Positions 15,989-19,991 of a stretch of 32,883 bases of DNA are shown here, one piece after another (position 1 is the first letter of the stretch; each line of letters begins with the position of its first letter). The notes under the pieces are model-generated. The model was not told where the DNA came from and searched no databases. It saw only the letters and a list, made by a program, of their open reading frames with translations. Origin of the DNA: Candidatus Asgardarchaeum abyssi. GTDB lineage: Archaea > Asgardarchaeota > Asgardarchaeia > Asgardarchaeales > Asgardarchaeaceae. The stretch covers positions 1 through 32,883 of the forward strand of contig JBECUL010000023.1 of NCBI GenBank assembly GCA_040225955.1, in the 5' to 3' direction. Both the position numbers and the translations under genes were made by a program.

Positions 15989-18352
15989 TTACATTCTTTC
16001 AAGTGGTTTTATACCTAAAAGGTTAAGTGCATTCCTTAAGACTATCCTTATTGAATCAACGAGTTTTACACGTGCTTTTTCAAGCTCTTTATCCTTAATA
16101 TTTAATACTTTTATCTTTGAGTAAAAATCAGAAAACATCAAAGCTAAAGATATTGCATACTGGCAAATTAAATCCGGTCTCAAAGTTCTTGCTGCTGTAT
16201 CGACAACACTAGGAAATTCCGACAGCTTTAAAATGATTCTCTTTTCGATCTCTGTATTTAACTTTGAATAATTAATTTCCTTTGGAACCTCTCTTCCCCA
16301 TTCTCGTAATATGCTACAAGCTCGTGCATGAGAGTATTGTATAAATGGAGCTGTATTTGCCTCTAATTTCAATGCTCTAGTTAATTCGATATCAAATGTT
16401 AAGCGCTTAGTTGGGGCAATATTCAATAAAGAGAACCTAATGGCACCAACAGCAACTCCTTCAACTATTTCTTTTAGTTTCTTTTCCTCTATGTCTTCAT
16501 ATTTTTTAAGGAGTATCTTTCTTTCTTCTAATAAAGTTCTAATCTCATCATATGTGCGGACTAATGCTATCTCGTAAAGTTCATCTATTGTTATATATCT
16601 TCCACGACGCCCTGCCATAGAGAAACCGGTTAAATCTACCATCTCATAATGTGCTGGATGAAACTTTTCAAGTATATCATGATATCCCATAAGGATCATA
16701 GCTGCGGCAACTTGCCTCTGAGGCAATTTTTGTTCAATTCCAATAACATTATAGACCTCATCAACCTTAAGAGCCTCAAACTTCCATAAAGTGTACGCAA
16801 TGTCACGTGTTGTGTATAATGTAGATCCATCAGATCTGCGTAAAACTAACTTTGGAGGAAGAAGCTCATCTAGCTTGCCTTCCTTTTTGGCTTTCTCGAT
16901 ATCTTTTTCCGATATACCAAAAACCTTTCTTACGTCTTCTCTTTCAAGACAGGCTCTTGGAAGATCCAAAATAACAGCTTTGGATGGAGGATCTTCATAT
17001 ATCAAATAACCAGATTTACTAAGACGTTTAAAGACCTCATCAACATAGCCCTGGAATATTAAATCGCTTTCCCAATCAAAAGAATCAAAGTGTATATCTA
17101 ATTTACTTAATGTTTCTTTAAATCCCTCTATTGTAAGTGAAGAGATTGTTCTAATAATTCTCTTTATTTCATCATTTCCTCTCTCATACTCAATTAAGAT
17201 CTTAGATATTTCTTGATCTATATTAGAAATTTGATATATTTTCCAATAAAGTTTCGAATATAGATCAGGGAACTTAACTTCAAGTTCCTTAGCAACATTT
17301 AGTAAATCTTGTATTTCATAAAATTCATTTAATAATGTGAAGGTGCCGACCTCAAAATCACCCCCACCATTAACAAATGCATTAAATACGTCTAAGAAAT
17401 CATTAAGAAAATCGTATTTTTTCCTAAGTTCTTTAAAGAGTTTACCCTGAAAAATATTCGTTTGGACTTCATTAATAGCGTTTTTTAATTGATCTATATA
17501 ATAGATCCAAGAATGTATAGATTTTGTCATTTCACTAATAATTGAAATTGTAACGTAAATGGGTTTTATCTGTCGTTCTAATTCTTGTATATTCTCATCT
17601 TCTAACTCCTTTTTAATTAGTATAAGAGTTTTCAAGAAAGATTTCCTAAAGTTTGTACAATTCTTAATAATCTGATCCCTCAAGCGATTTATCCTTTCTT
17701 TTATTTTCTTTAGCTCTAAAATTGTATTTGTTATTGCGTAAAGCCCACCAATCCAATGATCTGGTTTTATATCATTCTTATAACCTTCCGTATGCATATA
17801 TCCAAAACTTGTAATCGCTACTTGCAACCCAACATCATTAATATAGAAATGTCTTACTACGTCCGCGCCAAGAAATTTAAAAATCCTAGCTAACGTATCT
17901 CCAAACACAGAATTACGACCAGATCCTATATGCAGAGGATGTATGGGGTTAGCACTTGTGTGCTCAACCATTATCTTTTTTCCTTTTAGCTGATTCATTG
18001 ATCCATAAGTATGATCCTTATTTGAAATACTTGTAATAACCAGCTCGCTCACCTTTTCAGAATCTAAGACAAAATTGACAAAGCCACCTATCACGCGTAT
18101 CTCCTTTATCAGAGGATTTTTTTTCATATCTATGTTCTCTTTAATAGTATTTGCAACATCTTCTGGTTTCATACCGACTCTTTTTGCAATAGCAAAAGAA
18201 GATGGCGTACAGAGATCACCATGCTTTAGATCCTTTGGCTGTCTTATTATGACCTCTAACTTAAACTCAGAGCCAAATATTTTCCTTAAAGAATCGACTA
18301 CAGCATTTTTACAATAGTTCATAAGATAATTTAGTGGATCATCGACAATCAC
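15989..18352 (-). CDS. argS: Arginine--tRNA ligase with a large internal helical insertion
   Basis: HGDL, VEHTSANPIHPLHIGSGRN (HIGH), RSDGSTLYTTRDIAY, MAGRRGRY, PFIQYSHARACSIL (DALR), C-terminal LLGIKPLERM. Confidence 0.95.
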   Translation of the reverse strand: MIVDDPLNYLMNYCKNAVVDSLRKIFGSEFKLEVIIRQPKDLKHGDLCTPSSFAIAKRVGMKPEDVANTIKENIDMKKNPLIKEIRVIGGFVNFVLDSEKVSELVITSISNKDHTYGSMNQLKGKKIMVEHTSANPIHPLHIGSGRNSVFGDTLARIFKFLGADVVRHFYINDVGLQVAITSFGYMHTEGYKNDIKPDHWIGGLYAITNTILELKKIKERINRLRDQIIKNCTNFRKSFLKTLILIKKELEDENIQELERQIKPIYVTISIISEMTKSIHSWIYYIDQLKNAINEVQTNIFQGKLFKELRKKYDFLNDFLDVFNAFVNGGGDFEVGTFTLLNEFYEIQDLLNVAKELEVKFPDLYSKLYWKIYQISNIDQEISKILIEYERGNDEIKRIIRTISSLTIEGFKETLSKLDIHFDSFDWESDLIFQGYVDEVFKRLSKSGYLIYEDPPSKAVILDLPRACLEREDVRKVFGISEKDIEKAKKEGKLDELLPPKLVLRRSDGSTLYTTRDIAYTLWKFEALKVDEVYNVIGIEQKLPQRQVAAAMILMGYHDILEKFHPAHYEMVDLTGFSMAGRRGRYITIDELYEIALVRTYDEIRTLLEERKILLKKYEDIEEKKLKEIVEGVAVGAIRFSLLNIAPTKRLTFDIELTRALKLEANTAPFIQYSHARACSILREWGREVPKEINYSKLNTEIEKRIILKLSEFPSVVDTAARTLRPDLICQYAISLALMFSDFYSKIKVLNIKDKELEKARVKLVDSIRIVLRNALNLLGIKPLERM

Positions 18353-18438
18353 ACTTAAGCACCCACCTTAGAAAATAGATTAATAATAGTCTTTTTAATT
18401 TTGCTTTTGCAAAAACAAAAAGAAAGTGAATGATTTTC

Positions 18439-18585
18439 TTATTTTCCTAATTTTTTTAGTGCCTTTCTTATTCTTCTTGCAGCTTGAGAGAAATCGATGT
18501 ATTTATCTTCCCTCTCTAAAAATTCTGTAATATGATTTCCACGTGATTTAACAATTTTCTTTATAAAAGTAGTATCGTCCTCCAT
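18439..18585 (-). CDS. Small hypothetical protein (48 aa, MEDDTT...RRIRKALKKLGK)
   Basis: ATG at 18585 preceded by GGGGT; Lys/Arg-rich helical C-terminus. The upstream extension in the ORF track looks non-coding. Confidence 0.5.
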   Translation of the reverse strand: MEDDTTFIKKIVKSRGNHITEFLEREDKYIDFSQAARRIRKALKKLGK

Positions 18586-18779
18586 AGTTTCGAAACCCCA
18601 AACTACAATTATGTTTTTATTCTTGACATTTTTATTTATGGATTTAGTATGAATTAAATTTTTCGCACATTTTTTAGCAACAAAAGACACAAATCATATC
18701 TTTTAAATTTATCTTAGGCGGCTTTGTTATTTTTCCAACAGCTTATTGATTTATACTAGCGTGACTGTTATAAAGATGG

Positions 18780-18920
18780 ATATGTCCGCCTGCTCCTGGA
18801 CGATGTCTCATTAATCGACATCGCCAGGCCAGCAGGCGGTCATCGTGTTGGCGGATGGTCAGCCGCTGGATCATCAAGGTGCGGTTCGCACCACTCACCA
18901 GCGTACACGAGATCCGCCGA
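18780..18920 (-). ncRNA. Two-hairpin box H/ACA guide sRNA
   Basis: GC island in an AT-rich spacer. Hairpin 1 (18918-18850): GGCGGAU/AUCCGCC stem, open pocket, CGCUGG/CCAGCG stem, K-turn (UGA / UUGAUGA), GGUGCG/CGCACC stem. Hinge ACACGA (18848-18843). Hairpin 2 (18839-18786): CCGCC/GGCGG stem, then CGAUGUC/GACAUCG capped by GA-UUAAU-GA (K-loop). ACA at 18785-18783. Both ACA boxes lie 15 nt from the base of their upper stems. Confidence 0.8.
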
Positions 18921-18937
18921 TTCCTCTAATTATTAGG

Positions 18938-18946
18938 TAATAAAAA
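18938..18946 (-). promoter_or_regulatory. Candidate TATA box (TTTTTATTA) for the H/ACA RNA
   Basis: Lies about 20-28 nt upstream of the first hairpin on the minus strand; the AT-rich background makes this weak evidence. Confidence 0.3.
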
Positions 18947-19169
18947 TAGTAATTTTAATTTTTCTTGGTCTAAAAATTATAAATTTTGTAAACTAACTAT
19001 ACGGAATTAAGGCTAATAACACATAGGAGAAAATGATAAATTTGAAAAAATAAGATTAACTTTACTAAAATAATGAGTTTATTGAAAGATTAAAGTTTTG
19101 TTAAAGGTTAAAGTAAAGTATTTATGTAGCGGATAATGAGATAATAATACTGAATAAGGAGGCCCTTTC

Positions 19170-19991
19170 TTGCCAATCGCGTTAGTAGTTCCTGTGGGGA
19201 TTTATGTTCAAAGGGTTTTGAAGGGGATATTGGATAAGATAACATTGGGGATTTCCAAGATTTATTTACTAGTGCAAAGCGGAGAGGATGAGTGGGCAAG
19301 AAAAACACATGAAAACTTAAGGAAAATCCTAAACATGTTAGGACCTCTAAAAAGCGTTACAAAACCTGTTGAGGTAAAGGACTTTACTGATTATACAGCT
19401 TGTTTTGAAATACTGTACAATCTGGTTAATCACTTGCATTCTGATAAAGACGTTAGCGAAATCTTCGTCGATATTACATCATCAACAAGGATATGGACCG
19501 TTGCAGCTACTTCCGTTGCCTCGCTTTTTAAAAATGTGAAGATATATTATGTTACAAAAGGTGAACCTCCAGAGAAATTATCTATTGAACAAAGATACCC
19601 TGAATGGGCAATTAATGATGAAGGAAGAGAGATTATTGAGATTGTACCACCTTTTTCTAATATTGAGGAAGTATTGGAAGATGAAATAGCCAAAAAGATT
19701 TTAATGCTTCTGTATCATCATCCAAATAATCAGTTTATCTCCCTTAGGGATTTAGCTCTCAAATTAGGTATTGCTAAGGGTAGAGAAAGAGTTAAAAGAA
19801 GTGATAAGTTAAAGCTGAGGAGGAAACTCTATAAGTTGAGGAATAAGGGGCTTATTTATATTCAACAATATACTGGTAGAGCGTTAATAATAAACTTAAC
19901 ATTATTTGGAAGAACATTAGCTCAAGTTTTAATAAAAAATCACAATGAAGGAGGCGAGGATGATGACAAATTATCCAGTAACGCCAGTTAG
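19170..19991 (+). CDS. CARF-like (DUF6293/Csa3-type) domain plus winged-HTH transcriptional regulator
   Basis: N-terminal VVPVG strand; IFVDITSSTR motif (CARF D-x-T/S-x-G-x-R/K-like); KIYYV; C-terminal wHTH (SLRDLALKL...LYKLRNKGLI...LTLFGR). Confidence 0.75.
   Translation: MPIALVVPVGIYVQRVLKGILDKITLGISKIYLLVQSGEDEWARKTHENLRKILNMLGPLKSVTKPVEVKDFTDYTACFEILYNLVNHLHSDKDVSEIFVDITSSTRIWTVAATSVASLFKNVKIYYVTKGEPPEKLSIEQRYPEWAINDEGREIIEIVPPFSNIEEVLEDEIAKKILMLLYHHPNNQFISLRDLALKLGIAKGRERVKRSDKLKLRRKLYKLRNKGLIYIQQYTGRALIINLTLFGRTLAQVLIKNHNEGGEDDDKLSSNAS

Follow-up and report, generated by a model that had tools for sequence, protein, structure and literature searches.

A conserved double-hairpin H/ACA small RNA of archaeal type upstream of argS in the Asgardarchaeia

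The minus strand upstream of the arginyl-tRNA synthetase gene (argS) in an Asgard genome carries a conserved, uncatalogued archaeal double-hairpin H/ACA small RNA, an assignment that follows from its fold, from the retention of all 35 of its base pairs with covariation, from motifs that stay constant among homologues, from the four partner proteins encoded in the same assembly, and from its presence as a single genomic copy. In our judgement it is quite probable that the GC-rich island concerned encodes a box H/ACA RNA of the archaeal sort, built of two guide modules. It lies on contig C23 of a 189-contig, 2.6-Mb assembly, and this contig, a stretch of 32,883 nucleotides, is referred to here as the window. 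The RNA provides a well-supported, covariation-tested example of the H/ACA class from a deep, thermophile-like Asgard lineage, of a kind that standard annotation misses, and no papers on Asgard H/ACA RNAs were found in the literature searched.

Anatomy of the RNA

The island stands out sharply in base composition, with a GC content of 0.49-0.59 at 18750-18949 against 0.20-0.27 in its flanks and 34% in the assembly overall. The minus strand at 18783-18918 forms two hairpins, each made of a lower stem, an internal loop and an upper stem; this core, supported by the fold, the CM matches and the pairing, extends from the first base of the hairpin-1 lower stem (P1) to the terminal ACA. The fold of the minus strand at 18775-18925 reaches -75.7 kcal/mol, against a mean of -50.9 for shuffled sequences (z = -6.2), and 0 of 200 shuffles is as stable. 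An initial annotation, made from the sequence of the window, had described exactly such a minus-strand GC island with two hairpins, and the description is upheld by the GC contrast, the fold and the 35/35 pairs kept among homologues.

Hairpin 1 begins with the P1 5' strand GGCGGAU (18912-18918, minus strand, as for all elements of the RNA), which pairs with AUCCGCC at 18850-18856 and shows compensatory double changes in 5-6 of its 7 pairs. The pocket above it is bounded by the 5' guide strand CUCGUGUA (18904-18911), with an invariant core CGUGU, and by the 3' guide strand GCUGACC (18857-18863), in which CUGA is invariant. The upper part of the hairpin (18864-18903) comprises P2 (CGCUGG/CCAGCG), a K-turn (5' UGA; 3' bulge GAU plus GA) and a 6-bp apical stem, GGUGCG-AAC-CGCACC, and a single spacer A precedes the ACA box. 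The hinge, ACACGAUGAC (18839-18848), is composed of ACA box 1 (18846-18848), CGAUGA and the first base of hairpin-2 P1, and is identical in 4/4 homologues while the flanking stems have diverged. Hairpin 2 (18786-18839) has a 9-bp P1, CCGCCUGCU/AGCAGGCGG, a pocket with strands GGCCUGG and UCCAGG, a 7-bp P2, CGAUGUC/GACAUCG, and the K-loop GA-UUAAU-GA at 18808-18816, with double changes in 5/9 pairs of P1 and 6/7 of P2. The terminal ACA box (18783-18785), invariant in the four homologues, follows immediately 3' of this lower stem, and beyond it the sequence is T-rich and variable.

In both hairpins and all four homologues the ACA starts 15 nt beyond the final base of the upper stem. The exact 15-nt spacing claimed in the initial annotation holds for hairpin 2, and for hairpin 1 it holds only if the invariant C-G pair is taken to close P2, the distance otherwise being 16. 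The K-turn of hairpin 1 is built on its apical side from the canonical stem and a G-U/A-U pair, followed by a 3-nt bulge (GAU; AAU in one homologue) and the sheared pairs; on the P2 side come the sheared G-A and A-G pairs, then a U-U (or U-A) pair, then P2 itself. Its orientation is that expected for archaeal H/ACA RNAs. The K-turn had been read before as UGA / UUGAUGA and is indeed present, with 5' U-GA-GU facing 3' UUGAU-GA-U, but the conserved sheared G-A pairs use the P2-proximal GA (AUGA), the distal GA being AA in one homologue; the K-loop reading GA-UUAAU-GA stands unaltered, its GA..UGA being invariant in all four. Hairpin 1, hairpin 2 and the HgcG consensus all have seven stacked pairs separating the pocket from the G-A pairs. 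Recognised as invariant sequence motifs, the K-turn and K-loop of the two hairpins are probably of the type bound by L7Ae.

The element is present once in the genome. A strict descriptor was set to require perfect stems, a lower stem no shorter than 7 bp, a stem of 5-8 bp topped by GA..GA, and ACA at a ruler distance of 14-16 nt. It finds 8 matches in the 2.6-Mb genome versus 2 in the reversed genome, the two hairpins of the RNA being the only GC-rich ones; a relaxed form, with an ANA/CNA box and mismatches allowed, gives no enrichment (19 matches versus 17 in the reversed genome). Upstream of the RNA, a TATA-like A/T-rich element, TTTTTATTA (18938-18946, minus strand), lies 20-28 nt before the first stem and, read from the sequence, is a candidate promoter; similar A/T-rich boxes also precede the homologue loci.

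Conservation and covariation

Three further Asgardarchaeia-type assemblies carry syntenic homologues, in each case upstream of argS. They were reached through the neighbouring proteins, and a CM built from the single window sequence and its hand-read structure matches each at the syntenic intergenic locus, with 94 bits for L034 (identical to L035), 90 bits for L036 and 166 bits for L045. In each of the four loci the RNA lies between a CARF-like gene and a conserved ORF of about 48 residues, with argS next in line. Across the four-sequence alignment every pair (35/35, or 140/140 pair cells) remains a standard pair, 19 of the 35 show compensatory double changes, and 0 of 500 shuffles reaches the observed pairing or covariation score; when the partners are slid by 1-3 columns as a control, pairing falls to 34-48%. 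A three-sequence alignment gives the same covariation outcome. P2 of hairpin 1 covaries, with GC replaced by AU at two pairs, and the pocket-closing helix of that hairpin shows no covariation.

Against this drift of the stems, the CGUGU and CUGA cores, the 5' UGA and 3' AUGA, the GA..UGA, both ACA boxes and the hinge stay invariant, and conservation of the hairpin-1 guide strands holds between lineages with only 62-63% identity in ArgRS. The four homologues amount to about two independent lineages, the window being close to L045 and L034 close to L036. Two conditions that had been set for the H/ACA reading, namely covariation with preserved ACA and K-turn positions in relatives and the absence of dispersed copies of the MITE or repeat kind, have both come out in its favour, and together with the genes for Cbf5, Nop10, Gar1 and L7Ae they support the proposal of an unannotated two-hairpin box H/ACA-type RNA.

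Farther afield the RNA was not recovered. BLAST against 60 Asgard species genomes gave no match, the single-sequence CM gave no believable match in 150 Asgard species genomes, and an exact pattern of guide cores plus hinge had zero matches in 185,579 species genomes; the available relative species genomes are all related at phylum level only. A CM match of 23.6 bits in one of them (G078) was discarded as chance, its sequence being coding-like, of 50% GC, and with a fold z of -0.5. At the loci of ArgRS relatives of 45-46% identity (L037, L038) no homologue of the RNA was found. An Rfam search, also proposed at the outset, placed every family below its gathering threshold, and the sole weak match was to HgcG/Pab40 (RF00064; 24.4 bits, E 5.6e-5, against a gathering score of 77).

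Contigs from four marine-sediment or hydrothermal-vent metagenome runs cover 18300-19300 and differ from it by 10 substitutions and 2 indels in this 1 kb, of which 1 substitution falls in the RNA, too few to test constraint. At window position 18856 the assembly has T and the contigs of all four runs have C. In the RNA this variant is A70 versus G70, either of which pairs with U14, in the second case as G-U.

Hairpin 1 as a guide

Since its guide strands remain constant while the stems drift, hairpin 1 is read as an active guide, predicted from sequence to address one fixed site. The few guide changes that do occur (A22 to G, an A-to-G change seen in the 5' strand of L045 and compatible with a target U; G63 to A and C68/69 to U in the 3' strand; and U16 to C) all allow pairing with one fixed sequence, and the intersection of the guide variants gives 5'-GGUYRGU-U-N-URYRYGGG-3' as the putative target. 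This refines the substrate first proposed, GGUCAGC-U-N-UACACGAG, and, the rejected C86:2128 complement described below aside, no such site was found in the sequences scanned.

By elimination, the site most likely lies in 23S rRNA, and the lineage's own 23S is missing from the assembly. With that gene unassembled, a whole-genome scan yielded no accepted target for either pocket. Scans with full pockets and with cores of the lineage's own 16S 5' fragment, and of 10 LSU and 10 SSU rRNAs of relatives, gave no target, and neither pocket has a site in the near-complete 16S supplied by JGI contig L040, which is 97.9% identical to C110, the contig carrying that fragment. A joint scan with the four guide variants over 11 LSU rRNAs (one partial) and 13 SSU rRNAs (12 from other lineages plus the near-identical own-lineage 16S) did not rise above position-shuffled guides, which equalled or exceeded the real result in 48/200 cases for hairpin 1 and 169/200 for hairpin 2. 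The scan of rRNA and genome that had been set as a check on the H/ACA proposal has yielded no accepted site in near-identical 16S, genome or relatives' rRNAs, a point against the guide reading so far as these sequences go. An attempt to recover the own-lineage 23S through ORFs called inside rRNA genes led only to more distant operons, with 16S 80-83% identical.

Two candidate sites for hairpin 1 were rejected. C86:2128 offers a 17/17 complement where about 0.01 would be expected and is antisense to a trmO-like gene, and in the 23S 2570-2578 region just one guide strand fits. The degenerate motif can be checked directly once the 23S rRNA of the lineage is recovered.

Some observations on the rRNA genes themselves deserve record. 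The first ~380 16S rRNA positions lie at a contig end (C110:5085-5485, L039) with a GC content of 0.67 in a genome of 34% GC; the whole-genome rRNA search missed this fragment, and the 210 nt upstream of it form a GC-rich leader. The 16S of L040 is at most 85% identical to every other Asgard 16S compared. In another archaeal MAG (GCA_054010215.1), 16S, tRNA, 23S, 5S and RNase P RNA stand in one row at L042:183-5410.

Hairpin 2 and its pocket

The pocket of hairpin 2 presents a different picture. Its guide strands differ between lineages, and in 4/4 homologues they are complementary to each other; the minimum free-energy fold closes the pocket in every homologue and is favoured over the open form by 10-13 kcal/mol. 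The pocket-closing helix contains one compensatory U-A to C-G change, and in the four sequences its covariation is not above shuffles (234/500). Because the strands are self-complementary in all four homologues, the guide role of hairpin 2 is uncertain: its substrate may itself be a small, variable triloop hairpin, or the module may have lost its guide function. As read from the window, its predicted target would be 5'-YYUGGR-U-N-YYRGGYY-3', and the form common to all lineages YUGGG-U-N-YYGGGYY. A lead to a substrate, and no more than that, is the base of 23S helix 63, where the 5'-guide side pairs 7/7 in the nearest relative and about 0.1 such sites would be expected by chance. The conserved 23S peptidyl-transferase stretch GCUGGGUU..AGACCG, which the initial annotation had put forward as a loose fit to this hairpin, was rejected, as by our own pairing count it fits the 3' guide alone (5-6/6 pairs), the 5' guide pairing at only 3/7.

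Genomic context and protein partners

Cbf5 (468 bits), Nop10, Gar1 and L7Ae are all encoded in the assembly, each above its curated cut-off. Given that every sequence-level feature of an archaeal H/ACA guide is present, two Cbf5-Nop10-Gar1-L7Ae modules on one RNA would be expected. By the known mechanism of the family, the RNA, presumably expressed, would bind one protein set on each hairpin, with Cbf5-Nop10-Gar1 on the lower stem and ACA box and L7Ae on the K-turn of hairpin 1 or the K-loop of hairpin 2. The strands of the internal loop would then base-pair with the substrate RNA, flanking an unpaired U-N, and the target U, positioned 15 nt from the ACA, would be placed in the active site of Cbf5 and converted to pseudouridine.

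On the same strand and downstream of the RNA lie a small ORF and then the arginyl-tRNA synthetase gene (15989-18352); divergent and upstream are an HFX_2341/CARF-like gene and then a ribbon-helix-helix gene. The top ArgRS relatives are from Candidatus Asgardarchaeia (63% identity), an Asgard class, and from Njordarchaeales (37%). The small ORF (18442-18585, minus strand; MEDDTTFIKKIVKSRGN...), of about 48 residues, is 57-92% identical in the four loci and belongs to no Pfam family. The ArgRS itself (15989-18352, minus strand) has 787 residues, of which about 265 separate the N-terminal domain (15-96) from the catalytic-domain match (362-644), and ordinary archaeal ArgRS of about 650 residues align to just 56% of it.

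Elsewhere in the genome, another H/ACA-like locus, C15:21357-21607 (minus strand, L047), comprises three GC-rich hairpins and precedes a toprim/dnaG-type gene; its Rfam matches are weak (HgcG 33.6 bits, HgcE 20.6 bits), and CCA, not ACA, follows its first hairpin. Many GC islands of about 180 nt are also scattered through the assembly, among them C3:13009-13194, C3:45232-45416, C11:19332-19509, C13:1945-2124, C14:44128-44311, C46:15447-15630 and C64:1065-1248, and these are possibly a repeated structured RNA or element.

The hinge and alternative readings

The invariance of the hinge over 10 nt is new, and it extends past both the ACA and the ANANNA pattern. The earlier reading of ACACGA as a fit to ANANNA is correct and the hexamer is invariant; an archaeal ACA box at 15 nt accounts for it just as well, and ACACGA is foremost just that, an ACA box at the archaeal distance. 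With about two independent lineages, an H-box-like function and some other constraint on the hinge are indistinguishable. One possibility for the constraint is the complementarity of ACACG in the hinge to CGUGU of the hairpin-1 guide. Nor is the layout new by itself, as archaea are known to have guides with two hairpins and an H box had already been assigned to sR-h45, and for the same reasons, together with the archaeal nature of the K-turn and K-loop, the intermediate between archaeal and eukaryotic architectures envisaged by the initial annotation is not established.

A related account would make the RNA a eukaryote-style bipartite H/ACA RNA, in which the hinge is an H box anchoring the 5' Cbf5, the protein sets communicate, and hairpin 2 is mainly architectural. 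The order of hairpin, 10-nt hinge, hairpin and ACA tail suits this account, as do the identity of the hinge in four homologues whose loops, tails and spacer vary, the complementarity of the hairpin-2 pocket in all four with its one compensatory U-A to C-G change, and the finding that sR-h45 depends on its hinge ANA only when both stem-loops are present (PMC7075261). However, an ACA box suffices to explain the hinge, whose ACA keeps the usual archaeal distance of 15 nt; conservation continues beyond ANANNA into UGAC; the archaeal K-turn and K-loop are both present (PMC7991803); covariation of the pocket-closing helix does not exceed shuffles (234/500); only about two independent lineages are represented (the window with L045, and L034 with L036); and Euryarchaeota also have two-hairpin guides. 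We therefore consider the account unlikely, and place no greater trust in its extension to the class, whereby the Asgardarchaeia H/ACA particle would be an obligate two-hairpin unit with an H-box-like anchor in its hinge and a non-guiding hairpin 2. If that were true, the particle would represent an early form, equipped with a K-turn, of what became the eukaryotic hairpin-hinge-hairpin snoRNP; if neither the hinge nor the hairpin-2 pocket is special, the RNA is an ordinary archaeal guide.

Its constant place, on the same strand upstream of the ~48-aa ORF and argS in all four loci, also invites the thought that the RNA is an L7Ae-binding structured leader, or cis-regulatory RNA, of these two genes and not a Cbf5 guide, and the failure to find a target in near-identical 16S or Asgard rRNAs agrees with it. 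Yet two ACA boxes fixed at 15 nt and conserved guide strands in internal loops are needless for a leader, an AT-rich spacer of about 195 nt with T-runs separates the RNA from the ORF, and a relative with a 45% identical ArgRS has argS without the RNA upstream, all of which renders a leader improbable. Still more improbable, to the point of refutation by single copy and covariation, is that the island arose by chance as a GC-rich palindrome, is a mobile repeat or represents the 51-codon ORF (18743-18898) that overlaps it: the genome holds one copy, and the syntenic conservation, the compensatory changes and frame-breaking indels of 2, 1 and 3 nt all speak against such origins. An archaeal double-hairpin H/ACA sRNA remains the preferred reading.

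Comparison with known systems

It is established that the motifs of archaeal H/ACA sRNAs number one to three, that an ANA box (usually ACA) follows each of them, and that this box lies 14-16 nt 3' of the top of the pocket (PMC2377435; PMC7991803). The window RNA displays the corresponding hairpin anatomy, the K-turn and K-loop motifs and the ACA ruler, in a genome with the four protein genes. Its nearest counterparts are the two- and three-motif RNAs of Thermococcales, Pab35, Pab105 (HgcE in Rfam) and Pab40/HgcG, which likewise have tandem hairpins with a pocket and a K-turn or K-loop, and whose ANA at 14-15 nt from the pocket is comparable to the ACA at 15 nt found here (PMC2377435). The K-loop GA-N5-GA resembles the Pab40/HgcG consensus, the GA...AUGA form being common to both, and here as in the Thermococcales RNAs the RNA forms a GC-rich island, preceded by an AT-rich putative promoter region. 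Resemblance does not extend to sequence homology (24.4 bits to HgcG and no match to HgcE); in the HgcG consensus the next hairpin follows directly after the ACA, whereas the hinge here is an invariant 10 nt; and the targets of the Pyrococcus guides have been mapped, whereas the scans described above gave none for the window RNA.

The two-hairpin guide sR-h45 of the archaeon Haloferax likewise carries sheared G-A motifs in both of its hairpins. Its hinge box was called an H box fitting ANANNA by its authors, who found the hinge ANA to be required only in the double stem-loop context (PMC7075261). Its linker is 56 nt long and dispensable and its hinge box is AUA, in contrast to the 10-nt invariant hinge with ACA of the window RNA, and, as a further difference, helix 69 and the 2572 region of the Asgard 23S sequences examined suit neither pocket of the latter.

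Eukaryotic box H/ACA snoRNAs share the hairpin-hinge-hairpin-tail order, the hinge fitting ANANNA and the 15-nt distance from pocket to box, while the K-turn and K-loop are archaeal features (PMC7991803). The window RNA has both, and eukaryotic snoRNAs are without them. On the upper stem of eukaryotic H/ACA RNAs, Nhp2 takes the place of the sequence-specific L7Ae, and in many eukaryotic snoRNAs one hairpin is mainly architectural. To our knowledge eukaryotic H/ACA RNAs are always two-hairpin, and it is on the question of why they are so that the short invariant hinge and self-complementary hairpin-2 pocket of this Asgard RNA bear.
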